In this document: piece by piece, positions 4,470-32,037 of the stretch
Layout: each line of letters begins with the position of its first letter
How positions within the stretch are numbered: position 1 is the first letter of the stretch
DNA from: Naegleria gruberi
Lineage: Eukaryota
DNA: 64,000 nt
Assembly (NCBI GenBank): GCA_000004985.1
Contig: GG738874.1
Reading direction: 5' to 3' (one strand)
Made by a program: the position numbers and the translations under genes
Notes under the pieces: model-generated
What the model was told of the DNA's origin: nothing
The model's input: only the letters and a program-made list of their open reading frames with translations
The model's database searches: none

Positions 4470-4990
4470 TGTAGATCTCAAATAATAATTATTCTTCTAC
4501 AATTCTTTTCTTCACTAAATAGTGTTGCCGACTGGTACCACCACGCACAAATTATTGTAGTAGTAAAAATTTCAGAGAGAAGTCTCTGGGTGATGAAGAA
4601 AATTGGCCGTTAAGTAAATTTTTTTAAAGAAGAAATTGCTGAGGGTCATTTTTGATGAAGGCTTTGATACAACATGTTCCAGAGCGAAAATGGCTCACTA
4701 TTAGGTATGGTTGAACACGTGTTTTCTTCTTGCCAAGTCAATACACTATTTTTATAAATTGATATGGAAGAGGCTTGGAAGGAGGATTTTCAAGGAAGAG
4801 AGAATATACATTCTTTGAACGTTGCCAAACTATTGAAAAATACGTGTTTTTTTTGAAGGCTATTTGCCTTTTTGTAATATTGATTGTATTTAATATTTAA
4901 ATGTACAGAAATATATTGAAAGATTACAACATTGCCATAGATGGTTCTATTTAAAAAAATAACCAAATGGAAAATTGAGATTATTAAAAA

Positions 4991-5583
4991 ATGTCTGAAA
5001 ATCCAACATCGACTAAAACCTCGCGAGAAGAACACATTTTCAAATCGGAGGATGAAATCCAAACCAATTATTGGTTCATCATTGATGGCATGGTTGTCGA
5101 TTTTTCGGATTTTCTGTGGGGACATCCAGGTAAGAGTTTCATCATTATCATTTGATCCTATTATTTTGTCATAATCATCTTGATGCTGATGATGTGATTA
5201 TTGGAATATTTTAATGGTTACATTATTTTCCTTATTTATTATAATTTGTCAAAATGATGACGATTTGATTTAATTGTGATGATGATGATAATTGTTTGGG
5301 GTGATCTTTGGAAAATATCATGAAATTCATTTGTTGCTCCTCTCCATTTCATAATTCTTAATTGGATGTTGAAAAATTGTCCTTATAACTTTCTGTTATT
5401 GAACTTTGAAATGAATTACATTGTTATTGTAACTACAATTTAATATATTTAGGAGGACCTTCTTTTCTTAAGGAATGGAATAAAAAGGATGCCACTCAGA
5501 AATTTAAGTATTTTTCACACTCTGAAAGAGCTTGGGAAATGGCACGTGAGATGTCAATTGGAAGACTTGAAAAAAAGGAATAA
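4991..5583 (+). CDS. Cytochrome b5-like heme-binding domain protein (~90 aa), two exons: 4991..5129 and 5453..5583. Intron 5130..5452 (gtaagag...tttag, 323 nt).
   Basis: Exon 1 MSENPTSTKTSREEHIFKSEDEIQTNYWFIIDGMVVDFSDFLWGHPG ends at donor cag|gtaaga. Exon 2 completes HPGG-GPSFLKEWNKKDATQKFKYFSHSERAWEMAREMSIGRLEKKE. HPGG and the downstream HS motif are the cyt b5 heme ligands. Phase 1 on both sides. Confidence 0.8.
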
Positions 5584-6068
5584 TTGGAATGCTCTTCATC
5601 ATTCGAATAAACTAGGATTAGTGACAACTATTTCAGTTTATTCCTTTTGACACTAAGGTGATGGCTATCGTTTTATTTGAAAAAGGCAATCATGAGAGGG
5701 ATGCAGACAGGATGCTTCATTCCATTACAAACAGAGAGAATCGTCCAGTGTGCTGTATCAGAAATGATTTAAGGTCGTTGCTGTTGTTGAGCTGTTAGAA
5801 GTCACCAATTTGGGTGATTGTAGCTATTGAAAATGATAAGTTATTGTTCAGTTAAGCGAATACCCTAATGCACTATCCATAGACGAAAGTGTTGCCTCCA
5901 TTCTAGTGCAATATTTTGAAAAGATATCAAAGTTTGAAAGACAAGTGACCACTCACTTTAATGAATCTTTAAAGTGATGTTTCACCATGTTGTGGATACC
6001 CTACCGAAATACAAGATAGAAACCATGTGTCAGCATCAACACTTTAAAAACCTTAAAAAAACAAAAAG

Positions 6069-14544: not shown

Positions 14545-14617
14545 TCCCCCTTAGCTCAGTCGGTAGAGCGTCAGACTGTTAATCTGCAGGTCGGTGGTTC
14601 GAGCCCACCAGGGGGAG
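14545..14617 (+). tRNA. trnN-GUU: tRNA-Asn (anticodon GTT)
   Basis: Cloverleaf folded by hand. Acceptor TCCCCCT/AGGGGGA. D-arm GCTC-AGTCGGTA-GAGC. Anticodon loop CT-GTT-AA. T-arm GGTGG-TTCGAGC-CCACC. Discriminator G. No intron. CCA not encoded (eukaryotic). Confidence 0.9.
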
Positions 14618-14721: not shown

Positions 14722-15828
14722 TCAATAGCATGTCTTTCTGTTGATAATTCCACTTCCATATTCAGCATACTCTTCACTTCTAATCCAGGTGGATTCAAAA
14801 GTTGAAAGGGATCCTAAGATATTAGCACCAATCCAAGCTGAATATTTTCTTTCTGGAGGTGCAACAACTTTAACCTTATTATCAAAAGCTAATTGATTCA
14901 ATTCCTTCAAAATTCTCTCTGAAAATCCATCAAACATTGTACTTCCTCCACTCAATATTATATTCTCAAAAAACTTGTTTTTCATTTTGGCATCAGTATT
15001 CGAATTAATCGAGTCAATTACCATTTTGTGAACGCCATCCAAATCCATTCCAATCATTGATGGTTGAAACATTATTTCTGGGCACTTGATGCATTCACTT
15101 CTAATGCACAGATTATTTCCATCAGGTAGCTCATAATTTTTCCCAGAACATTCCTCATTCAATTCTCTTTCAAAATCCAATGCAACACGACATGTTTTTT
15201 CCTTAATATCTGTGACTAAACTTCGATCTCTGAAAGTATTACCACTATCTTTTAACAGTTTATCCATGTGGTCTGTTAGCTCATTGCCCGCTAAATCCAT
15301 TCTTCTTACTCCATTTCGAATAATACATCCCTCATAAATAGGTACTGAACTAGATGTTCCCTCTCCACAATCCAAAACAACTCCACTCGATCTTCCAGAC
15401 GAAATCAATACCAGCAATGCATTCGGACAACTATTCATAAGTGGAACTTTAAATTTTTCAAATAACATCTCAGCCAACTTTCTCCTATTTTGTTTCGGAT
15501 TAAAACAACCTTCTCCCAAAATTATTCCCTGATTCTCAGGCTCAACCCTAAGCTCATTAAAAAACACATGTTCAAATAAAATTTCCATATCATCCCAATT
15601 TGTAATCACATCACGATCCATTGGTTTGGAAAGTTTGAGAATGGCCTTCTTAATGACGGCTTCATCACCCACAAAAACATTCTTCATGCCAGGAATGATC
15701 ATTCCCTTTATTTTTGGTCTGCCAATATAGGGAGGAAAGACAGCCCGTGGAGCATCCCTGCAAACAAATCCTGCACGAATGTTGCCGAAACCAATGTCCA
15801 TACAAATGGCTCTGTCCAATTCTGTCAT
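14722..15828 (-). CDS. Divergent actin-family protein (actin-related protein, Arp)
   Basis: ORF 14722..15828 with ATG. DIGFGNIRAGFVCRDAPRAVFPPYIGRP matches the actin N-terminal phosphate-1 loop. C-terminal KYSAWIGANILGSLSTFESTWIRSEEYAEYGSGIINRKTCY matches actin [29 protein letters not shown]...HRKCF. Confidence 0.85.
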   Translation of the reverse strand: MTELDRAICMDIGFGNIRAGFVCRDAPRAVFPPYIGRPKIKGMIIPGMKNVFVGDEAVIKKAILKLSKPMDRDVITNWDDMEILFEHVFFNELRVEPENQGIILGEGCFNPKQNRRKLAEMLFEKFKVPLMNSCPNALLVLISSGRSSGVVLDCGEGTSSSVPIYEGCIIRNGVRRMDLAGNELTDHMDKLLKDSGNTFRDRSLVTDIKEKTCRVALDFERELNEECSGKNYELPDGNNLCIRSECIKCPEIMFQPSMIGMDLDGVHKMVIDSINSNTDAKMKNKFFENIILSGGSTMFDGFSERILKELNQLAFDNKVKVVAPPERKYSAWIGANILGSLSTFESTWIRSEEYAEYGSGIINRKTCY

Positions 15829-17012: not shown

Positions 17013-19094
17013 ATGAGTCATCGGTTTGATGAGTTGGCAAGTATTGACACTCTATCGATTCCCTCTATTGATGATGAGGACGATATGATGTTATATAAAA
17101 AGTATTTAGGAGAGGATGAGGAGCTGATTCAGCTGCACAACCTTGATACCAAAGTGGGGAGTAATAGAAAACCTTATCAACAACAAAAGAAGAATATAAG
17201 GAGAAGGGAATTTGGAGAAATTGTAGAGGAGGTAATAATCAATGATGATGAAATCTCTTCTTCCGGATCAGAAAAGTACATATCACCACGAGAGAACAAA
17301 TATTTGGATGAAGTTAATGAATTACTTGGAAAGGCTAAAGCTGAAAGAGAAAATTCACCAACAAAACAAACAACCCCGGACACTGCTCGTTTCCTCACGA
17401 AAATTAAAAAGTCTTTAGAGGATAACTTGGATGATGTTATTGAGGAGAGTACACGACTTTTAAAAGAAGCCTTACCAATGTTTTCCTATGAAACCAAGCA
17501 AGGGACGAGAGAAAACTTTTCCGACATGATTAAGAGGCAGCAAAAAGCCACTGCAAAGAAGGAAGAGCCATCTTCTTCATCTCTGTTTACTTCTGATTTT
17601 GATGATGATATTCCAATGATGACAATTTCAAAACCAATTAATGAATTTCCTAATTACTCTTCCGAGTATAGAAATTATGAAGTTTTTGAATCAAAAAAGA
17701 ATAAGAAACTTTTGGATAAGGATCATGATGATATCTCAACAAAATTCTTCCCTCACCTTCATGAAACAATTCAAAGATCGACTCCACTCAAGAATAGGAG
17801 ATTAAAAGCAAATGTTGTGAAAACTCCAAAAGTAAATCCAGATCAGAATAATGAGTACTATGCAAAATCAACTGAAATTTTACCAAGCAATATGGAAAAT
17901 AGACATGTATATGAAATAGATGAAGATCCATCCCCTAACAAAGAGGAAGAACTCAAGAAGGATAAACCTCAAAGGCAACATCTCGATTCAAGACAGTCAC
18001 GATTTACAGGACCCAAGAAGCAACGAGAATCAGTACAGAAAACAGAAAATAAGATACCAAAAAACGAACAAAAAGAGGAACCAAAAGTTGTTGAGACAGT
18101 TCCAGAGGTGATTGAGGACAAACCTCTCATTTTTGAATACATTAAACCGAAAGTGAGAGAAATTGAGTTTGCATCTCCTTCCTCTCCAGTTGAACCATTT
18201 GAACAGGTTGAATCAATGGAAGAACTAAGTGTAGAAGAGACTTCTCCTCGTGTGGTAAATATGATGAATCAGAATCTTAATGTTTTTCATGATCCAGTTA
18301 ATATTCAAGAAGAACAACCAAATCAAGTTTTCAATGAAGAATCACAAGAAACAACAGATCAATATGAAAAGAGAGAAGAACCACTCACTGTACAATCATT
18401 TGAAGAGTTCAACTTTGACTCCAATGAAATATCACCTGCCATTAATGAAGAATCAAAGCTTGAAACAGAAGAAACTATCCTCAATAAGGATGATGAAAAA
18501 CAAGAGGAATCGTTCTATGAAAATGAATCTCCAATGATATCCAGAGATTTGGATAACATTGGTTTCCAAGATATCATAAGAGATTTGAACTTTACAACTG
18601 AAACCATTTTAAGAGCTTGTTCTTCGTCAGTGGTTGATATTGAGCCAATCAATATTCCAAACTTTATTCCTCAAGAGGAAGATCAAATAGCCAAAGAAAA
18701 CACACTGAACCATGATGAGCCTCACACTCCAGCAAGAGAACAAGTACCTATAGAGGCATTAATTCCATTCTCACCAATGATTTATGACCAATACAGTCCT
18801 ATCCATAACATTCCATCACCTCAAAGTCCAATTGAAACTCCCCAACCAACCCCTCCAAAGAAGAAGATTTCCTCCAATAATTTAAATAAGAAAAAGACCA
18901 TAGCTACACCAAGAGAACACAATGCACCACTCGAAGAATCATTCATTCCCTACTCTGGAGTAAGACACTTACAAAAAACCACCTACAACCATTCCACAAT
19001 TGATTGGTATTTAAATTTGTGCAGTAACAAGTACAGTAGAACTCCCTCCACAAGTCAAAACAATACAGATAAGGGCGTGGTCAAGTGGGTGTAA
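17013..19094 (+). CDS. Hypothetical acidic, S/E/K/P-rich intrinsically disordered protein (693 aa)
   Basis: ORF 17013..19094 with ATG. Low complexity. No domain recognised. Confidence 0.45.
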   Translation: MSHRFDELASIDTLSIPSIDDEDDMMLYKKYLGEDEELIQLHNLDTKVGSNRKPYQQQKKNIRRREFGEIVEEVIINDDEISSSGSEKYISPRENKYLDEVNELLGKAKAERENSPTKQTTPDTARFLTKIKKSLEDNLDDVIEESTRLLKEALPMFSYETKQGTRENFSDMIKRQQKATAKKEEPSSSSLFTSDFDDDIPMMTISKPINEFPNYSSEYRNYEVFESKKNKKLLDKDHDDISTKFFPHLHETIQRSTPLKNRRLKANVVKTPKVNPDQNNEYYAKSTEILPSNMENRHVYEIDEDPSPNKEEELKKDKPQRQHLDSRQSRFTGPKKQRESVQKTENKIPKNEQKEEPKVVETVPEVIEDKPLIFEYIKPKVREIEFASPSSPVEPFEQVESMEELSVEETSPRVVNMMNQNLNVFHDPVNIQEEQPNQVFNEESQETTDQYEKREEPLTVQSFEEFNFDSNEISPAINEESKLETEETILNKDDEKQEESFYENESPMISRDLDNIGFQDIIRDLNFTTETILRACSSSVVDIEPINIPNFIPQEEDQIAKENTLNHDEPHTPAREQVPIEALIPFSPMIYDQYSPIHNIPSPQSPIETPQPTPPKKKISSNNLNKKKTIATPREHNAPLEESFIPYSGVRHLQKTTYNHSTIDWYLNLCSNKYSRTPSTSQNNTDKGVVKWV

Positions 19095-19224: not shown

Positions 19225-19503
19225 ATGATAACAAAAGGCGCCAACACATCTCGTAGAATTATTGAAGACCTTCCCCTCTCCTACTTTATCCTTCGTGCAC
19301 AAAGTTTAAAATTATATCGTCAAACATTGAGACAAACACAACAAATACAAAGAGCCGATACAAGAAGAGAGGTTCGTCAGCAAGTCAGACAATTCATCGA
19401 CCCGTACAAACATAACAAGGACGTTGAGTTGGGTAAACGAGCACTTTCGGAAGCACGTTCTCAAATTAAATACTTGGAACAACTTATTTCTATGAGTCAA
19501 TAA
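19225..19503 (+). CDS. LYR-motif (Complex1_LYR family) small protein, probably mitochondrial
   Basis: 92 aa. SLKLYRQTLRQ contains the L-Y-R tripeptide with downstream basic residues and conserved F (RQFIDPYKHNKD), typical of LYRM/ISD11-like proteins. Confidence 0.6.
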   Translation: MITKGANTSRRIIEDLPLSYFILRAQSLKLYRQTLRQTQQIQRADTRREVRQQVRQFIDPYKHNKDVELGKRALSEARSQIKYLEQLISMSQ

Positions 19504-19608
19504 TAGTAGGAATACATAATAATCATCATCATTCGAGAAGAAAATAATTCATTTGGAATTTATATTGAATATTTAATAATTTGGAAATATAATTTTTGGA
19601 ATTTAGAT

Positions 19609-20313
19609 ATGACTATTACTAATCGATCATCACAATTGCTCATCACAAAATCATACAATGAATTTTTGTATTATTTAAAGAGTATTCATCAACAGCAGCG
19701 TCAAGCAACAAAATTTACTCCGTATCCCTTGTTGGGAATGGATTTGGGAACAAGAAATATTGGTTTATCCTTGACTGTTCGACAACAATTGAAAGATTCG
19801 GATGATTTAAAGCTGTTGGTTCGGTCTCTTTCTAATTTTTCACAACACAACCAGAATACTCTAAAAAGGACGATTGTTAAAGCAAAGCCATTGACCACCT
19901 TATCAATGAATACAGATTTGGAACCAGAATTAATGTATAGAGATCTTAGTTTAAATATTGAGCAATTATGTGAAAAGTTTAAAGTGAAAGGAATTGTGGC
20001 AGGTTATCAAACGAATTATAGTTCATCTGATGAGTTACTCACAGTTTTAAATAATATGATAATTTCTGGCGATTTTCTCTACTCAATGCCAATACTGTTA
20101 CAAGATGAAAGCAGATCCTCGTTTGAATCTTACATTCACTTGGTAGATCAGAAAACAAATGCCAATCACAATATGGGAGTCATGGATGCCTTCAAACGAT
20201 ACAAGCAAGATATTGATACTATGAAAAAGCAAGACAAGATGAAACTAAACTCTATCAGTGCTGCTGTCATTTTGGATAGAGCAATTAAGGAAATTCAAAA
20301 AATAAACAAGTAG
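19609..20313 (+). CDS. YqgF/RuvX-like (RNase H-fold) putative Holliday-junction resolvase / pre-rRNA nuclease domain protein, likely organelle-targeted
   Basis: LLGMDLGTRNIGLSLT matches the YqgF N-terminal G-x-D-x-G-x-x-x-x-G-x-A catalytic motif. C-terminal NSISAAVILDRAIKE matches the YqgF SAAxIL tail. The 40-aa N-terminal extension is presequence-like. Confidence 0.55.
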   Translation: MTITNRSSQLLITKSYNEFLYYLKSIHQQQRQATKFTPYPLLGMDLGTRNIGLSLTVRQQLKDSDDLKLLVRSLSNFSQHNQNTLKRTIVKAKPLTTLSMNTDLEPELMYRDLSLNIEQLCEKFKVKGIVAGYQTNYSSSDELLTVLNNMIISGDFLYSMPILLQDESRSSFESYIHLVDQKTNANHNMGVMDAFKRYKQDIDTMKKQDKMKLNSISAAVILDRAIKEIQKINK

Positions 20314-20356: not shown

Positions 20357-22481
20357 TTATTCATAGATAAAGAGACCCTTATCTAAACCACATGAAGCAA
20401 TTTGAGAACCATCAATATTCCAAGTAACACCTGTAATAGAACTGGAATGGCCATTCACAACTAGAACAGCTGATCCCATAGCCTTTGTTGTTTGAGGAGT
20501 CAAAGACCAAATGAATAATTTACCATTGGTGCCTCCAGCGGCACAATATTCACCACAAGGAGAGAAGCATGCCTTATTGTAAGCAATGGTATTCTTATAG
20601 TCAGTATGTTTCAAGGTATCGAGAACCTTTTGAGTCATTCTCAAATCATAAATGTTGAGCAAGTTGTCCTTACCATTACTCAACAATTTAGTGCCGTCCT
20701 TTGAGAAACTGACACTGGTAACTTGTTGGCCATCGTGAGCTCTCTCAATTTCAGAAATGAGTTTAAATGACTTCATATCCCACAATCTAACAGCTGAATC
20801 AAAGTGAGCACTAGCAATAGTGTCACCTCTGGAAACTTCTACATCATTGACACTGGACTTGCAAGTCAACAAGGTCTTTTCACAGGTACCATATTGGAGT
20901 TCCCAGAATTTGATAGTTCTGTCGTGAGCTCCAGTAACAACCTTCTTAGAGTCTGGTGAAAAGTCAGCTCCGTAAATCTTTTTAGTGTGACCAGTGAGTG
21001 TGTGTCTTACACGATCATTTCCCAAATTCCAAATTCTACAAATTGAATCAGCACAAGCACCAAGAGCCAATTGACCAACACTGCTAAATTTCACCTTGAT
21101 TACACTGTCAGTAGATCCGTGAAGGGTAGTTGTGAAATTTCCTGATTTGGAATTGAAAATTCTAATAGTCTTATCACTACAAGCAATAGCGACACTGTGA
21201 GTATCCTCTGAAAAGTCAATACTATTAATTTGAGTATCAATAATTTGTTTACAGACAACTGTCTTTGGAGGAGTGATCAATATCTTTTCAGCATTATTAG
21301 TGGTTGTTGAAGGAGTATTGATGTTCATCGAAGTTGGTAAACCTGCTTGACCTCCTTGTTGTTGAGAAGATCCAACATTTCTAATCTTATCAAAGAATGA
21401 GAAGAATCCAGAGTCTCTTCTATCCTTTGGTGGAAGGTTATCTTCTGGACCTGGTGGTGTGGAAACTGAACCAGCAGAACCAGTAGTTCCATCCACTGAA
21501 GTATCCAAATTTCCAGTCTTGTATTTTGCTTGCAATGTTTGAAGTTGTTGTTTTTGTTGCATGACAGTCTTGTACAATTCATTGACTTGATTCATAGAGT
21601 CAACTTGTTTTTGCTTTTGTTCCACAACGTGATTGACCATCTTTTTGTTTTCTTCAGTTAATTCCTCAAGTTTTTTATCCTTTTCTCTCAATTCATTGAG
21701 AATGGTATCTCTTTCATTTCTCAATACTTCAATGCCACTTTCCTTCTTTTGAAGTCTTTCTTCCAACAATCTACTATTTTCTCTAGCAGTTTCCAATTCA
21801 ATCATTAATTTTTCATATCTAAAATTTCACAAATTTGAAACGAATTATGTTGGTAAGAATTTGATAGCTCTTAGAAATGATACATACTGAATCTTTTGAT
21901 CTTGTTCTTGATTCTTCAATCTCTTGACTTCATTATTCAAATCAAGAATAGTTTGAGATGATTCAACCTTTGCTCTAAAAGCTGATGTCAACTCTTCTTG
22001 AAGGCAATACACCTTTTCTTCCAATTCCTTGACTCTTGCAGAGGATACACCACTTGATCCTGGTGATGATGGCACAGACATTGATGTTGGTGCTCCAGAC
22101 TTTAACTTGGATAATTCTTCCTTGTAAATATCATTTTCGGCTTGAATGGAAGTTAATTTCTCCTTTGTTGTTTGATGTAATTTTCTGGTTTTTCTCAATT
22201 CTGTACAAATACTTTCATCTGTGTTGGAAATGATTATTGTTATGATTTAGAAAATAATTGTTTTTGTTGATCGTGATCAGAGGAATGAAGAGATGATGAA
22301 AGATCAAAATTATTTAAAAATAGTAAAAAATTGATCGGAATACTATGAATTACTAGTTTAGTGACAAAAACTCACATTGTTGAATCAAATTACTAAATTG
22401 TTTACTCTCCTCTTGGTTCCTCTTCTCCAGAACGGCAGAGAAGTTTGTCTTCCAACATGGTGAGGTTGTGAGTGCGCTCAT
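20357..22481 (-). CDS. ATG16: ATG16 (autophagy E3-like complex subunit): N-terminal ATG5-binding region, coiled coil, 7 WD40 repeats. 3 exons: 22481..22376, 22218..21888, 21818..20357. Introns 22375..22219 (gtgagt...acacag, 157 nt) and 21887..21819 (gtatgt...ttttag, 69 nt).
   Basis: Exon 1 MSALTTSPCWKTNFSAVLEKRNQEESKQFSNLIQQ aligns to human ATG16L1 [43 protein letters not shown] matches DLNNQMQRKDREMQ. WD region RVRHTLTGHTKKIYGADFSPDSKKVVTGAHDRTIKFWEL / HFDSAVRLWDM aligns to ATG16L1 RLRHTLTGHSGKVLSAKF...SGSHDRTLKLWDL / HFDKKIRFWDI. Splice phases 1 and 2 are consistent. Confidence 0.85.
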
Positions 22482-26952: not shown

Positions 26953-27026
26953 GCAGCGATAGATCAGTTGGTTAGATCGTAAGCCTAACACGCTTAAGGT
27001 CGCGGGTTCAAGCCCCGCTCGCTGTA
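26953..27026 (+). tRNA. trnV-AAC: tRNA-Val (anticodon AAC, expected A34-to-I)
   Basis: Hand fold. Acceptor GCAGCGA/TCGCTGT (G1-U72 wobble). D-arm GATC-AGTTGGTTA-GATC. Anticodon loop CT-AAC-AC (CCTAACACGC as in eukaryotic Val-AAC). T-arm GCGGG-TTCAAGC-CCCGC. Discriminator A. Confidence 0.8.
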
Positions 27027-27144: not shown

Positions 27145-30100
27145 TTATTTCTTTTCAGATTCATCTATTACAGAATTTTCATAATAATTCTTGAGTTCTT
27201 GCTGTTCTTGTTCAACAAGCTTGTTAGAACTCGAAGGAGTATGATAGGAAACTTCTAGATCACATCCAAGTGGATTTTCATGATGTTTCTCCTTCAATAA
27301 ATAGGTTTGAGAAAGTCCTTTTCCTTTCACTTCAACCATTCTCTCTTCAAACTCAAATAAATCATAAACTCTTCCATAGGTAGATCTGGAAATTTGAATT
27401 CTTCCTGGAAGTGAAGTTGATTCCATTCGAGAGGCAGTATTGATTGTATCTCCCCACAAATCGTAGGCAAACTTTTTAAATCCAATCACTCCACCAACTG
27501 CATCTCCTGTGTGAAGACCAATTCTCAAATTAATGGCTGTGTTATTACTCTGATTGATATTTTTCAAGAAGGACATGATTTCAATGGCAAATCTCAACAT
27601 TCTTTCTGGATGATCCGATGACTTGCTTGAATGTAAACCACTCACACAGAAATAAGCATCTCCAATGGTCTTAATCTTGTCAACCAAGTGAACTTCTGTC
27701 AACTTGTCAAATCCTTGAACAATTAAATTCAATATTTGTACCAACTCACTTGGTTGTAATTTTGAACTCCAAGCTGTAAAGCCAACCATGTCACTGAAAA
27801 ATACAGTGATATCATTCACTTTTTCATATAAATTCTCTTCTCCATTTTTCAATCTTGAAGCCATTGACATTGGCAATATATTCAATAATAAATCTTCACT
27901 CTTCTTCTTTTCCTCTGCAATCAAAATACTCTGTTTCTTTTCAGGTGTAATATCTCGAACAAAAACAATCAAAATTTGCTTCTTTTCATGAATTGAAATT
28001 GAAACTGAAACTTTTGAGGAGAATGAAGTCTTGTTCTTTCTCAGAGCCATTGCTTCAAATGCATCATGACTTTCACCTGTTGAAATTAATTTGGTTATTC
28101 TTTGAGAATACTCATCTGTGAATAGAGATTGAATGGAGAGTCCCAAAACTTGTGACCTCGAATGTCCAAACATTTCCTCAGCTGAATTGTTGAAAATGGT
28201 GATATTTCCATCCTTATCACAAATAATGGCAGAATCAACACCTCCATTCAAAATAGTCTTGACCATTTCAATCTTGTCTTCCTTTTCATCGGAACTCATC
28301 TCAAATTTGGACATTAACTTTGTTATCTTTGAGGATGAAGGAATAGAATTACTCATGACATAATCTTTCAAAATCAAATTATTGTCAATCAATTCCAAAT
28401 TTACATAATTCAACATCATTCTCAAACATGCTCTTTCCTTCCAATATCTTTTCAATGAAGAGTAACAAATCAATGCGTATAAAAGTGTGGCAACAAAGCA
28501 CAACACAATCATGCTAGCTGTTAGGCCAATACTTGAAATCTTCTCGTGTTCTACAAGGGTGGATATAAGAAGTTGTAAATTGGTAGTTATTGTTTGTGTT
28601 ATGTAAAAAATGTCTGTAAAATAAGCAGTCACCATTTGTGTCATACTCTTTTGTTGCCCAAAGAATACTTCGTTGTAATCTAAAGACTTGGTAATATAAT
28701 CCGTCAGTGCAATGGTCAAACTATGACAAGGATCTTCCATAGGAATGGTATCGTTACAAAAGTCTCCTAATATATAGTCTACATCTTGATATTTTCCAAC
28801 AACGGCTGATTGATAGGATGTTGATTCATCACCCACAATCACATAATTCCAGTAAGTTCTCAAGTCAAGTAAATCTTGCTTATTTTCCTCATTGAATATC
28901 AAAGGCAAAGTAGTGAGGTACTTTACTCTTTGAAAGTACCAAAGTAACCTAAAGTTGGTTCTACTTGTTCTTAGGGAAACTGCATTGATTGAACCAACAA
29001 CATTCATAGATTGGGAACTATTTTTGGTATTTGATTGTAGCTCTACAACAACCAAGACGGAACATAGGCAAACAATTATGACGAGTACAAAACTTCCCAT
29101 CATTACTAAATTTCTCATTTTAAAAAAGGAATTAGACGAGCTTATTGAGTCATCAATTTTCTTGTCAAAATTGTGATAAACCTTTCCGACTTCGTCTTTT
29201 GCAATCCTTCTGAATACCTCCCTTAGCTCAGTGACTATTCGTCTGGCATGCACAAAGATAATGGAAAAGTAAATCATTACAATTAGTAGATACGTGGTTA
29301 GAACAGAAATCACAGTAATCCATAATTGCTCAAAATTAGCTTCCAAAACATCAATACTTTCTTCAACAAATTTTGAACACAGACCATTAAAAGCTAGAGA
29401 CATGGATATTCTATTGTAAAATAGAAATAGGTATGGATAATTATCATCTAAATGGGATGTTAACACCTCAATATTATTAAATTGCTTCAACAACGTTTTA
29501 CCGTGTGTTAATATTGAAGACAAGTAGAATTGAATAGATGTATTGGTAGACTTATATCCTGGAATATCGCTTGTTCCGTCCAGTGATTCATTAGCAATAG
29601 GAAGTTTAAGATCATACTGATTTTTCAAATATTCCTTAGCAACTTCAGGCATTAACAAATTATTATCGCCTGCATAGATGACAGTACCAACTGTATCTAA
29701 CAATGTCTTTGTGTATATAATTGTAGAGTTGAGTAATTTTTCAGTATTGTTTCCTCTTGAATAGAACTCGGTTTGAAGAGCTCCTATTTGTGCCAATAAC
29801 TTGTAAGGCACAGATGTCATTAAGCATACTTTCTCTTGCATGGACATTCTTTGGTTAATACTCTGAGAAAATGAAAAGGCTATTGGAGCAACAATACATA
29901 TAGTAGACAATGAGACAACACAAAAAATGAAAAACAATACAGAATACACAACCGTTGACATTGGTGTGTTAATGGCTGTGCGCAAGATATGATCTTTTCT
30001 ATCTTCATTATCCTCGGCAGTTACACTTACAGAATCCCAATTTTCCAAGTTGGCTCTTTGTGAGTCTATACTGAATCTAGAGGTAGTTCCTTTGTGAAAT

Positions 30101-32037
30101 GATTCGTGGGCTTTGGATATTTGGAGAGTTGATCTATTCTTCTTATCATCATCATTGTCCTGTGCTTCTTCAAATAAATCTCTTGCCAAATTGATTTCCC
30201 ATTTGTATTTTTCCAAATATGAGGCATAGGATCTGAGAAGTGTCTTGTTGGATCGGTTGGCAATCAATAAATTGTCATAGATGGTGTCACATTCATTGTA
30301 AATGGAACAGCTTGTTCTATTGATGTGCTCCAATTTATCAATGGATGGTTTGTCATTCAGTAATTCTTTGAAGAATGATTTGTGACATCTAGATAAGGAT
30401 TTGACTTTCTTTTCAACCACTGCAAGTTTTCTCAAAACTTCAAGATTATTTCCATGGAATGCATGATATTCAATCTCTTCATTTCTCAACATGATGTTGA
30501 ACAATTGAGCTAGTGATGGTGAATTTCTTTGAGCTTTTTGTAAAAGAGCCAAACCAATACTGTATGATTGAGAATCATCATATTCCTCAATTCCACCAAA
30601 TGAAACAAATAATGCACTCACAATCATCAAATCAACATTTTCAATTGATTTCACAAATGTATTCACACTGTGCTTGGCCAAATCAAAATCACTTCCTTCT
30701 TCTGTTTTGAGCTCTGATTTGCAATTCATTGAAAATCGAATGAAGAGTGCCAAATTGTCTTGTCTCTTTTTGGAATCATCCAATGTTAATAAAATATTTG
30801 AACTATCTGCCTTGTTGGAAATTAAATTTCTGATTGATTTCAATTTACGTGAAATGAAAAAGTGAGCACCAATAAAACCAAGAATGAATGAAAGAATGGC
30901 AAGTACACAAGTAACAACAGTCATAATTCCACCAATCACTTGTTGGTCCAATGAAGTTGAAATGAACTGCAAAATTAATGGTGAAATTGGAGTGAATGCT
31001 TTCAATGAAATGAAGGCAATATATAAACAATTCTCCCATTTCCTGAAGAATGGCAATGTTTTCAACATGATTACCAATAATAGTAAATTCATGACAATTT
31101 TCAAAATTGAAGCAATGAATGAATATTGAGATGTGCAAAGAATGGTGGCAACTAAACTCAATTGATTTACCAAATTGAAGAGTATGAATGTTGAAGTTGA
31201 ATACATGGAGAATAAAATCTTTCTATTCAATTCAGCACTTGTTTCAACTGTCAAATAACTTGCAAGCATTGTCAGGACAATATTCAACAGAATACCTATG
31301 CATGCAATGGCCGTAAATATGATTTGTAGCACTGAAGAGAAGTCTTCATTTGGAAAGTAATAGAGTGATCCAATTGAAGAAGTACTTGGAGTAATTAAAA
31401 TACAATGAACTGAGAGCATGAATAAGGAAAAGGTTCTCTGAAATATCAATGAATTCAAAACAAATGATTTGAACTTTTCAAAGAATTTTCCTCCCTTTCT
31501 TGATGCCCATTTACAATAATAAATGGCCAATCCTGTCATGATTTGTAAAACAACAAACAACACAGATAAGGCAACAATAAGATAATAAGGATAGAATTCA
31601 GAGGCCAAATTGAGTGGAAAATACAAAGCTCTCCAAATCCAACCTGGAATCACTCCCCACATCTTGTTAGAAATGCCACTTGTCAATGTTGTTGAGTTAT
31701 CATCCACCAAAGGTGTTGTAATGGAAGAAACAATGATTGAATTATAAATCAAATAGGCATGATAGAATATCATCCAAAAGAACATGTAAGTATTCTCTTT
31801 CCCAATCAATGACTCTTTGGATCTTAGTGTGGTTACAAATGAGAACAAACTAATTCCTGCAGTATTCACTATGCTTTTCCCTGACAAGGAGGAAGCATAC
31901 GAACCAGATGTGGCAGAAGTCCCTCCACCAAACTGAGAATTACTATCACCACCATCATTAGTGGTTCTATTGGGGTGAATAGAGAATTGAGGTTGTGCTA
32001 CTGTCGAACTTGTAACTGGATGTACTCTTGACGCCAT
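27145..32037 (-). CDS. Transmembrane class III adenylyl/guanylyl cyclase (1630 aa): two multi-TM blocks, PAS domain, C-terminal cyclase catalytic domain
   Basis: Single ORF with ATG at 32037. About 12 hydrophobic helices in residues 60-400 and again near 700-760 and 880-1010. PAS-like MFGHSRSQVLGLSIQSLFTDEYSQRITKLI...ILIVFVRDITPEKKQ. Catalytic ITVFFSDMVGFTAWSS...VDKIKTIGDAYFCVSGLH...INLRIGLHTGDAVGGVIG...YDLWGDTINTASRMES carries the metal-binding D, transition-state N/R and GDxY motifs of class III cyclases. Confidence 0.9.
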   Translation of the reverse strand: MASRVHPVTSSTVAQPQFSIHPNRTTNDGGDSNSQFGGGTSATSGSYASSLSGKSIVNTAGISLFSFVTTLRSKESLIGKENTYMFFWMIFYHAYLIYNSIIVSSITTPLVDDNSTTLTSGISNKMWGVIPGWIWRALYFPLNLASEFYPYYLIVALSVLFVVLQIMTGLAIYYCKWASRKGGKFFEKFKSFVLNSLIFQRTFSLFMLSVHCILITPSTSSIGSLYYFPNEDFSSVLQIIFTAIACIGILLNIVLTMLASYLTVETSAELNRKILFSMYSTSTFILFNLVNQLSLVATILCTSQYSFIASILKIVMNLLLLVIMLKTLPFFRKWENCLYIAFISLKAFTPISPLILQFISTSLDQQVIGGIMTVVTCVLAILSFILGFIGAHFFISRKLKSIRNLISNKADSSNILLTLDDSKKRQDNLALFIRFSMNCKSELKTEEGSDFDLAKHSVNTFVKSIENVDLMIVSALFVSFGGIEEYDDSQSYSIGLALLQKAQRNSPSLAQLFNIMLRNEEIEYHAFHGNNLEVLRKLAVVEKKVKSLSRCHKSFFKELLNDKPSIDKLEHINRTSCSIYNECDTIYDNLLIANRSNKTLLRSYASYLEKYKWEINLARDLFEEAQDNDDDKKNRSTLQISKAHESFHKGTTSRFSIDSQRANLENWDSVSVTAEDNEDRKDHILRTAINTPMSTVVYSVLFFIFCVVSLSTICIVAPIAFSFSQSINQRMSMQEKVCLMTSVPYKLLAQIGALQTEFYSRGNNTEKLLNSTIIYTKTLLDTVGTVIYAGDNNLLMPEVAKEYLKNQYDLKLPIANESLDGTSDIPGYKSTNTSIQFYLSSILTHGKTLLKQFNNIEVLTSHLDDNYPYLFLFYNRISMSLAFNGLCSKFVEESIDVLEANFEQLWITVISVLTTYLLIVMIYFSIIFVHARRIVTELREVFRRIAKDEVGKVYHNFDKKIDDSISSSNSFFKMRNLVMMGSFVLVIIVCLCSVLVVVELQSNTKNSSQSMNVVGSINAVSLRTSRTNFRLLWYFQRVKYLTTLPLIFNEENKQDLLDLRTYWNYVIVGDESTSYQSAVVGKYQDVDYILGDFCNDTIPMEDPCHSLTIALTDYITKSLDYNEVFFGQQKSMTQMVTAYFTDIFYITQTITTNLQLLISTLVEHEKISSIGLTASMIVLCFVATLLYALICYSSLKRYWKERACLRMMLNYVNLELIDNNLILKDYVMSNSIPSSSKITKLMSKFEMSSDEKEDKIEMVKTILNGGVDSAIICDKDGNITIFNNSAEEMFGHSRSQVLGLSIQSLFTDEYSQRITKLISTGESHDAFEAMALRKNKTSFSSKVSVSISIHEKKQILIVFVRDITPEKKQSILIAEEKKKSEDLLLNILPMSMASRLKNGEENLYEKVNDITVFFSDMVGFTAWSSKLQPSELVQILNLIVQGFDKLTEVHLVDKIKTIGDAYFCVSGLHSSKSSDHPERMLRFAIEIMSFLKNINQSNNTAINLRIGLHTGDAVGGVIGFKKFAYDLWGDTINTASRMESTSLPGRIQISRSTYGRVYDLFEFEERMVEVKGKGLSQTYLLKEKHHENPLGCDLEVSYHTPSSSNKLVEQEQQELKNYYENSVIDESEKK

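Follow-up and report, generated by a model that had tools for sequence, protein, structure and literature searches.

Bacterial-type RuvX is normally an essential RNA/DNA nuclease, and a free-standing copy of it in a eukaryotic nuclear genome raises the question of what such a protein does there and how it came to be there. The locus in question lies in a stretch of 64,000 nucleotides of Naegleria gruberi contig GG738874.1 (assembly GCA_000004985.1), hereafter the window. The open reading frame (ORF) at positions 19609..20313, called ORF2 here, runs from ATG to TAG and encodes a divergent RNase H-fold protein of 234 residues of the RuvX/YqgF family. Upstream of it lies ORF1 (19225..19503), which encodes an LYR-motif protein of 92 residues resembling LYRM2; both genes and all the features described within them are on the + strand. 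Our joint reading, to which we assign a probability of roughly 0.55, is that ORF2 encodes a divergent, fast-evolving protein of RuvX fold, passed on vertically within the nuclear genomes of heteroloboseans (Naegleria, Willaertia, Acrasis-like and other lineages), that it is expressed as the second cistron behind the LYRM2-like gene, and that it functions in mitochondria.

Family membership and the LYR partner

An earlier note on this DNA had assigned ORF2 to the RuvX/YqgF family, and the assignment is borne out by sequence profile and by structure. The search with the Pfam hidden Markov model (HMM) PF03652, named beforehand as the test of this claim, gives a match of 36.4 bits against a gathering cut-off of 29.2 (E=8.2e-9), and the claim stands. 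The predicted structure has an RNase H-like alpha/beta fold with RuvX as its nearest neighbour in fold comparison, and both motifs quoted earlier are present, as G43-M-D45-L-G47 and S217-AAVIL222. The NCBIfam equivalog models of RuvX (TIGR00250 / NF001026) remain far under their cut-offs, at 18.8 bits against 43.25 and 19.5 against 155, which counts against a straightforward assignment, and neither phmmer nor a 2-sequence profile with the ORF2 protein finds a RuvX match in the PDB. The weak equivalog scores and the lack of a PDB sequence match therefore make ORF2 a divergent family member, and on its sequence it is classed as a divergent RuvX homologue and not as a functional equivalog.

The link to solved RuvX structures is made solely through fold comparison and bridging homologues. 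The bridge between the Naegleria clade and canonical RuvX is formed by P0004-P0007 and P0009, which match PF03652 end to end at 59-76 bits, and the orthologues P0001-P0003 score 35.5-39.8 bits (P numbers denote homologous proteins, L numbers loci). An exhaustive HMMER scan of 1.84 billion cluster representatives at E<=0.001 returned nine relatives, all of which carry PF03652. The closest named relatives are XP_044553692 of N. lovaniensis and KAL9653821 of Willaertia magna, both annotated as hypothetical. No entry of the public collection matches the ORF2 protein exactly. The family HMM of the mitochondrial resolvase Cce1/Ydc2 (PF09159) does not match ORF2, nor is Cce1/Ydc2 its closest fold.

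The single-domain RNase H-like fold is shared with bacterial RuvX/YqgF (PF03652; PDB 7ess, 7w89, 1nmn and 1vhx), as are motif I (GxDxG) with its invariant Asp, the beta5 pattern D-E...S.E, and the SAAxIL motif of the C-terminal helix. In contrast to the bacterial proteins of ~140-170 residues, ORF2 has 234, is nuclear-encoded, and carries an extra N-terminal strand and helix, two insertions, GYQ in place of GxP, and Asn in place of the third catalytic Asp; it is also coupled to an LYR gene, which bacteria do not have. The other proteins to be compared are Tex, Spt6 and mitochondrial TEFM, whose YqgF-/RuvC-like domains are pseudo-nucleases in multi-domain proteins with HhH, S1 and SH2. The Pfam scan detected no HhH, S1 or SH2 domain beside ORF2's RNase H-like domain; the description of ORF2 as free-standing is confirmed in that HhH, S1 and the other domains of Tex, Spt6 and TEFM were not detected. 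Both the beta1 Asp and the beta5 Asp-Glu are retained in ORF2, which in sequence as well as structure is much nearer to RuvX proper than to Tex, Spt6 or TEFM.

Ahead of motif I, ORF2 has an extension of 42 residues with 5 Arg+Lys, 1 Asp+Glu and 9 Ser+Thr. Being basic and poor in acidic residues, it has the presequence-like look that had been pointed out earlier. That description holds for its composition and fails for a simple presequence, since residues 11-29 (LITKSYNEFLYYLKSIHQQ, 19639..19695) are conserved and structured. They are modelled as a strand and a helix with a predicted local distance difference test (pLDDT) score of 93-96, and the pattern S.QF..L..FL...Y is kept in all eukaryote-type homologues and absent from bacterial RuvX. 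It follows that this stretch is a structural element specific to the clade, not just a leader to be cleaved off. In the short eukaryote-type members the element begins at residue 3-5, and in ORF2 about 10 residues are free ahead of it.

ORF1 matches PF05347 at 30.1 bits against a cut-off of 24.8, and its LKLYRQ motif is kept in all LYR orthologues. All 7 of these orthologues match the LYRM2-like family PF20263, the best at E=3.4e-6, with the window copy at 15.5 bits against a cut-off of 26.8. The Acrasis orthologue is named LYRM2 in UniRef, and the best PDB matches of the LYR protein are LYRM4 and NDUFB9, both weak. The LYR orthogroup is small in profile search, with Willaertia and Acrasis kona as its only named members, and an LYR protein 100% identical to the window's copy occurs only in Logan/ENA contigs. 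In L004, of the P0007 lineage, the LYR gene is found in two reading-frame fragments (2122-2349 and 2368-2493), and a short intron or a frameshift inside ORF1 would therefore be present there.

The association of the two genes was followed with an LYR HMM built from seven LYR proteins and run on six-frame translations of the window and 16 loci. It matches solely directly upstream of eukaryote-type RuvX, in the window and in L001-L004, L006-L010 and L016, and gives nothing in the bacterial RuvX loci, the P0012 contigs, or the rest of the 64-kilobase window. LYR and RuvX genes are adjacent on the same strand in nine heterolobosean lineages, and the pair also occurs for the distant, catalytically canonical homologues P0011, P0006, P0010, P0007 and P0005. 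The flanking genes vary by locus (RGS and ABC transporter, TLD, NAP, and others), so that the pair is found in at least five contexts. In the LYR tree the partners of P0006 and P0011 group with Acrasis and a third group is separate; accordingly, no fewer than three deep lineages of Heterolobosea have the pair.

The pair is missing in two cases. In Acrasis kona (L017:4001-4261, JAOPGA020001386.1) the LYR gene is present with no RuvX within 4 kilobases on either side, and in the P0012 lineage, a metagenomic eukaryote (L014:2340-2852, L015), a eukaryote-type RuvX has no upstream LYR. A universal pair was accordingly rejected. In the P0012 lineage a divergently oriented gene of the DOCK family ends 3 nucleotides ahead of the RuvX start. 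The literature searched on RuvX, YqgF, LYR and Naegleria yielded nothing that links them.

Catalytic site and candidate function

Three carboxylates are conserved in the family: an Asp in beta1, an Asp relocated to beta5, and a third Asp in the C-terminal helix (PMC3985635). Residue statistics were taken from a 67-sequence family alignment of database sequences and from alignments with PDB entries. The first carboxylate is the catalytic Asp45 (19741-19743) of motif I, GMDLGTRNIG (beta1, 19735..19764); it is invariant in 67/67 family members, and the equivalent substitution D25A in MsRuvX, the RuvX of M. smegmatis, abolishes activity (PMC11466669). The second is Asp166 (20104-20106) in the beta5 motif LLQDESRSSFES (20095..20130), where D166-E167 sit in LLQDES. 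Glu167 is invariant, and in place of Asp166 the three orthologues closest to ORF2 (P0001, N. lovaniensis and Willaertia) have Asn; in MsRuvX, cleavage is not abolished when the D-E pair is substituted (PMC11466669). The third carboxylate is a family feature absent from ORF2, where the C-terminal helix motif LNSISAAVIL (20245..20274) has Asn214 (AAC, 20248-20250). This position is Asp in 63/67 members, and Asn in all four proteins of the Naegleria/Willaertia clade and in one bacterial RuvX.

Other departures accompany Asn214. Motif II, GIVAGYQ (beta4, 19990..20010), has G-Y-Q instead of the family G-x-P; the Pro is kept in 64/67 members, and G-Y-Q occurs in ORF2 and two other Naegleria-clade members of the alignment. 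By alignment and model, insertion 1 (residues 61-87, 19789..19869) adds two short helices in the beta2-beta3 hairpin and is confined to the Naegleria/Willaertia subclade. Insertion 2 (residues 183-206, 20155..20226) adds a helix between beta5 and the C-terminal helix, in a region that is flexible in solved YqgF structures. Taken with Asn214 and the change from GxP to GYQ, the two insertions suggest altered or weakened catalysis in the Naegleria/Willaertia subclade, as far as sequence can indicate.

The bacterial RuvX P0008 matches PF03652 strongly (123.6 bits) and has Asn at both the beta5 and the C-terminal-helix positions, and a loss of activity in ORF2 is therefore not concluded. Judged from the alignment, Asn214 lowers confidence in shared catalysis and not in homology. 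Heterolobosean lineages outside Naegleria and Willaertia keep all three carboxylates, and the natural Asp-to-Asn change at the position where the same change kills MsRuvX amounts to a natural experiment on the role of the third carboxylate. The P0008 gene (L005:1649-2131, on a bacterial metagenome contig) has response-regulator and Hpt genes as neighbours, with an overlap of 50 nucleotides with the Hpt gene.

For the function of ORF2, the strict genetic coupling to an LYR adaptor is the best available argument for a mitochondrial role. LYRM proteins bind the acylated mitochondrial acyl carrier protein (ACP), each with one mitochondrial client (PMC11293456). The mitochondrial role proposed in the earlier note thus gains support from the conserved tight pairing with an LYR-family gene (PMC11293456), by an indirect route, and the basic N-terminal extension leaves mitochondrial targeting possible. 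In the reading favoured here, the RuvX-like protein is probably mitochondrial and would work there as a client or partner of the LYR protein. It would act on RNA, in 5' maturation of the small-subunit rRNA or in ribosome biogenesis. We lean towards RNA over DNA as the substrate because E. coli YqgF is implicated in 16S rRNA processing and because Asn214 corresponds to a change that kills DNA cleavage by MsRuvX.

Several points weigh against this functional part. The LYRM clients surveyed comprise respiratory complexes, iron-sulphur cluster assembly, the electron-transfer flavoprotein and the mitoribosome, with no nuclease among them (PMC11293456). The D142N substitution of MsRuvX, equivalent to Asn214, abolishes flap cleavage (PMC11466669). 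The preference for RNA is a choice made purely by analogy, and a classical cleavable presequence on ORF2 is doubtful on the structural model.

A bolder version would have the LYR protein dock the RuvX-like protein to acylated mitochondrial ACP, so that mitochondrial RNA processing or small-subunit ribosome biogenesis, served from a leaky-scanning bicistron, is gated by the status of acetyl-CoA and fatty acid synthesis. We regard this version as speculative. If true, it would give the first nuclease client of an LYRM and the first such bicistron in Discoba, and it would hint at what LYRM2 targets directly, where we know of no target at present.

The same protein may instead be a nuclease of mitochondrial DNA repair or recombination that resolves Holliday junctions or flaps. 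Comparable resolvase roles are held by Cce1/Ydc2 in fungi and MOC1 in chloroplasts. We consider this unlikely, as the equivalent of MsRuvX D142, at which a D-to-N change abolishes DNA cleavage, is Asn across the Naegleria/Willaertia clade, and the YqgF proteins of E. coli and D. radiodurans are monomeric and do not resolve junctions. In addition, no LYRM in the survey has a client in DNA metabolism (PMC11293456).

Another explanation takes the lost carboxylate further and regards the Naegleria/Willaertia protein as a catalytically dead, nucleic-acid-binding scaffold comparable to Tex, Spt6 and TEFM, with a role as an assembly factor or a transcription-associated factor. It is about as improbable as the resolvase. 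Against it, D45 and E167 are invariant and ORF2 keeps D166, other heterolobosean lineages retain the full set of three carboxylates, and a bacterial RuvX with a PF03652 match of 123.6 bits has the Asn/Asn combination as well. The accompanying domains of TEFM, Tex and Spt6 (HhH, S1 and others) were, as stated above, not detected.

Signature of a proposed two-gene mRNA

The proposed mechanism of expression is that one mRNA would yield both proteins: scanning ribosomes would often bypass the weak LYR start and reach the RuvX start, with no AUG between. This arrangement is established in green algae, where leaky-scanning bicistrons have been shown experimentally to combine an ORF1 start in weak context and an ORF2 start in strong context with a scarcity of AUGs ahead of ORF2 (PMC11291117). 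LYR-motif ORFs are reported to be common in green-algal bicistrons, with other partners (PMC7896298). The LYR-RuvX pair shows the same sequence features, namely a short co-oriented ORF1, minimal spacing, the two start contexts, and scarcity of AUGs.

The spacing of the pair ranges from overlap to a short spacer. The stop and start codons overlap by 4 nucleotides (ATGA) in L004, L006 and L016 and by 1 nucleotide (TAATG) in L007. A gap of 1 nucleotide separates the genes in L001, a metagenomic contig, and the distance is 17 nucleotides in L003 (Willaertia), 105 in both the window and L008, and 130 in L002 (N. lovaniensis). The window spacer (19504..19608, + strand) has 19% GC, is free of ATG, and follows an LYR stop TAA that is continued in frame by TAG TAG. 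A fusion of LYR and RuvX into one protein was rejected on the basis of this triple stop (TAA TAG TAG) and of the overlapping junctions, in which LYR and RuvX are read in different frames.

Counted in any frame from the LYR start to that of RuvX, ATGs number 5 in seven lineages together (0-1 each), against ~44 expected from locus density. The surviving ATG is always a conserved in-frame Met near the LYR C-terminus (...ISMSQ in ORF1). The LYR ORFs have no out-of-frame ATG, compared with 3.0-6.5 per 100 codons in eleven other ORFs of the window, and the spacers of 105, 130, 105 and 17 nucleotides have no ATG of any kind. Among stretches of the same length, those as poor in ATG account for 1.9% in the window and 0-9% in the other loci. 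Resampling of synonymous codons gives a combined P=0.0005 for the depletion. In the unpaired LYR gene of Acrasis kona, ATG occurs internally 6 times (4 in frame, 2 out of frame), whereas the closest paired relatives of this gene have none.

The start contexts are asymmetric. The LYR start has a pyrimidine at -3 in 6/7 lineages, with the weak context ttttgaATG in the window, whereas the RuvX start is in a strong context with a purine at -3 in 7/7 lineages, as in ttagatATG of ORF2. The long ORFs of this genome prefer an A-rich leader, and 21/27 of their starts have a purine at -3. Together, the scarcity of ATGs and the asymmetry of the start contexts are the sequence signature of a leaky-scanning bicistron, and the LYR-RuvX pair looks like a conserved two-gene mRNA.

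Certain features of these data pull the other way. None of the per-gene resampling values (P 0.17-0.46) is significant alone, and part of the depletion is due to the Met-poor sequence of the LYR protein itself. The unpaired control is a single species, and the seven lineages share kinship and are thus not independent. A promoter inside the LYR ORF would likewise permit overlapping genes.

The rival to a shared mRNA is that LYR and RuvX are independently transcribed neighbours, with their adjacency an inherited synteny and RuvX possibly working outside mitochondria. Gene-dense genomes of the Naegleria type favour such adjacency, the spacers of 105-130 nucleotides in three lineages leave room for a promoter, and Acrasis kona and the P0012 lineage do without the pair. 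We nevertheless hold it to be quite improbable, as in at least five contexts the pair persists with different genes on both flanks, and a stop/start overlap or a 1-nucleotide gap is found in five lineages. The depletion of ATGs, the asymmetry of the start contexts and the contrast with Acrasis would also be unexpected for independent genes.

With regard to known bicistrons, the heterolobosean pair shares with the green-algal ones (PMC7896298, PMC11291117) the short co-oriented LYR ORF1, the weak and strong contexts, and the few AUGs. It differs from them in its occurrence in Heterolobosea (Discoba), in having as the partner an RNase H-fold RuvX, for which no earlier report is known, in its several stop/start overlaps (ATGA and TAATG), and in that it is known here from sequence alone. 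Another likeness is the upstream ORF of human MIEF1, an LYR ORF1 that encodes the LYR protein MIEF1-MP/L0R8F8. With the LYR-RuvX arrangement, leaky-scanning expression, known in green algae and for a few animal genes, would thus reach Discoba as well, and an adaptor of LYRM2 type would have a concrete proposed client that can be tested. As Naegleria gruberi can be cultured, these points are open to experiment.

Origin, relatives and neighbouring genes

The window has 33% GC and is gene-dense with almost no introns, and ORF2 lies among eukaryotic genes with the same GC. Its PAS-adenylate cyclase, TmcB-like repeats and MSP domain, along with homologues named in Naegleria and Willaertia, speak for Heterolobosea, and an origin from a Candida-like yeast was rejected. 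The loci of N. lovaniensis and Willaertia magna are syntenic with the window, sharing the RuvX-like gene, ATG16-WD40, ribosomal protein L29, and MSP; ATG16-WD40 in this gene order is present in N. lovaniensis and the window. This synteny across Naegleria and Willaertia therefore excludes contamination and recent transfer, and on the gene order ORF2 is taken to be nuclear and to have descended vertically in vahlkampfiid heteroloboseans. The earlier note had raised horizontal acquisition; that the gene was acquired recently in this way, or that the assembly is contaminated with bacterial DNA, deserves next to no credence: the family is overwhelmingly bacterial and the RuvX of Cyanidioschyzon has been scored as a horizontal-transfer candidate (PMC6629376), but ORF2 sits among eukaryotic genes with its own 33% GC, is syntenic in N. 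lovaniensis and Willaertia, and has its closest bacterial proteins at only 25-29% identity in unrelated phyla.

The deeper origin is a separate matter. A neighbour-joining tree was computed, in which 13 eukaryote-type RuvX sequences form one clade with a long Naegleria/Willaertia branch. The eukaryote clade is thereby supported, and the bacterial sister group, alphaproteobacterial or other, is left unsettled. An ancient transfer into the heterolobosean ancestor is therefore inseparable from mitochondrial descent, and a transfer into the heterolobosean stem is possible. The named bacterial matches at similar scores include Rickettsiales, Vineibacter and Celeribacter, and also Vicinamibacterales and Firmicutes; the word index biases which bacterial candidates the profile search retrieves. 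A scan of named genomes gave three bacterial matches of 25-29% identity in three phyla, and a scan of metagenome loci gave three loci, with a eukaryote-type RuvX in L013 alone. Neither a specific bacterial donor nor alphaproteobacterial ancestry could be assigned, as the matches spread over phyla at similar scores and the sister group in the tree is unsettled.

The premise that the fold in eukaryotes usually survives only inside Spt6/Tex was too strong. Free-standing YqgF homologues have been noted in plants (PMC6981420) and in Cyanidioschyzon (PMC6629376), and YqgF, according to a review, "also appears in eukaryotic genomes" (PMC9601230). The plant and red-algal proteins are likewise stand-alone, of bacterial RuvX type, nuclear-encoded, presumed organellar and functionally uncharacterised, and no LYR pairing has been reported for them, nor was one looked for here. 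A stand-alone eukaryotic RuvX is by itself a modest addition, since examples from plants and from a red alga were known before. The nine matches of the exhaustive scan, of which both named members are heterolobosean, include no named protein from a plant or alga, and among the 120 profile matches listed the named members are all bacterial. In the absence of a named plant or algal match, the heterolobosean clade therefore looks separate.

In the literature searched, we could not find a description of the heterolobosean RuvX clade, its N-terminal element, its catalytic-site substitutions, or the LYR-RuvX unit with its leaky-scanning signature. A whole protist lineage has retained a bacterial-type nuclease in its nuclear genomes, with members that are uncharacterised, called 'hypothetical', and mis-modelled in public records.

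The public gene models show this in two species. In N. lovaniensis (L002, PYSW02000006.1) the LYR gene at 4505-4780 is unannotated, upstream of the RuvX-like gene at 4911-5699. The model XP_044553692 starts at an internal Met (MACEAKG...), and a start at an ATG farther upstream gives 30 more residues, which align with the conserved N-terminal element of ORF2. In Willaertia magna JBEGDK010000047.1 (L003:5001-5857), KAL9653821 has 243 residues, and a spurious intron in this model takes the place of the true C-terminus. Read without interruption, the ORF at 5001-5645 encodes 214 residues and ends with the conserved helix motif LNAVSAGVVL.

Next to the pair in Naegleria, the upstream neighbour (window 17013-19094, + strand) is a low-complexity protein of 693 residues with no Pfam domain, whose C-terminus is conserved with a 994-residue protein of N. 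lovaniensis (...YSEVRHLQKQTYNHSTIGWYLNLCS.KYSRTP...VKWV). On the other side, a convergent WD40 gene (20357-21805, - strand) ends 44 nucleotides past the ORF2 stop and is a single ORF of 482 residues. For the orthologue in N. lovaniensis the annotation gives ATG16 plus WD40 and 623 residues, and the window gene may lack an upstream exon or use a different start.

Farther away, the window encodes an Est1-domain protein and an MSP-domain protein. An actin-family protein of 368 residues (14722-15828, - strand) matches conventional actins over its full length (E about 1e-112), is slightly shorter, and is probably a divergent paralogue of actin. Just upstream of it, at 14545-14617, is a tRNA-Asn(GTT) gene. 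At 27145-32037 (- strand) a protein of 1630 residues combines TmcB-like TPR repeats with PAS and a class III adenylate/guanylate cyclase domain, and an intergenic tRNA-Val(AAC) gene lies beside it at 26953-27026 (+ strand).

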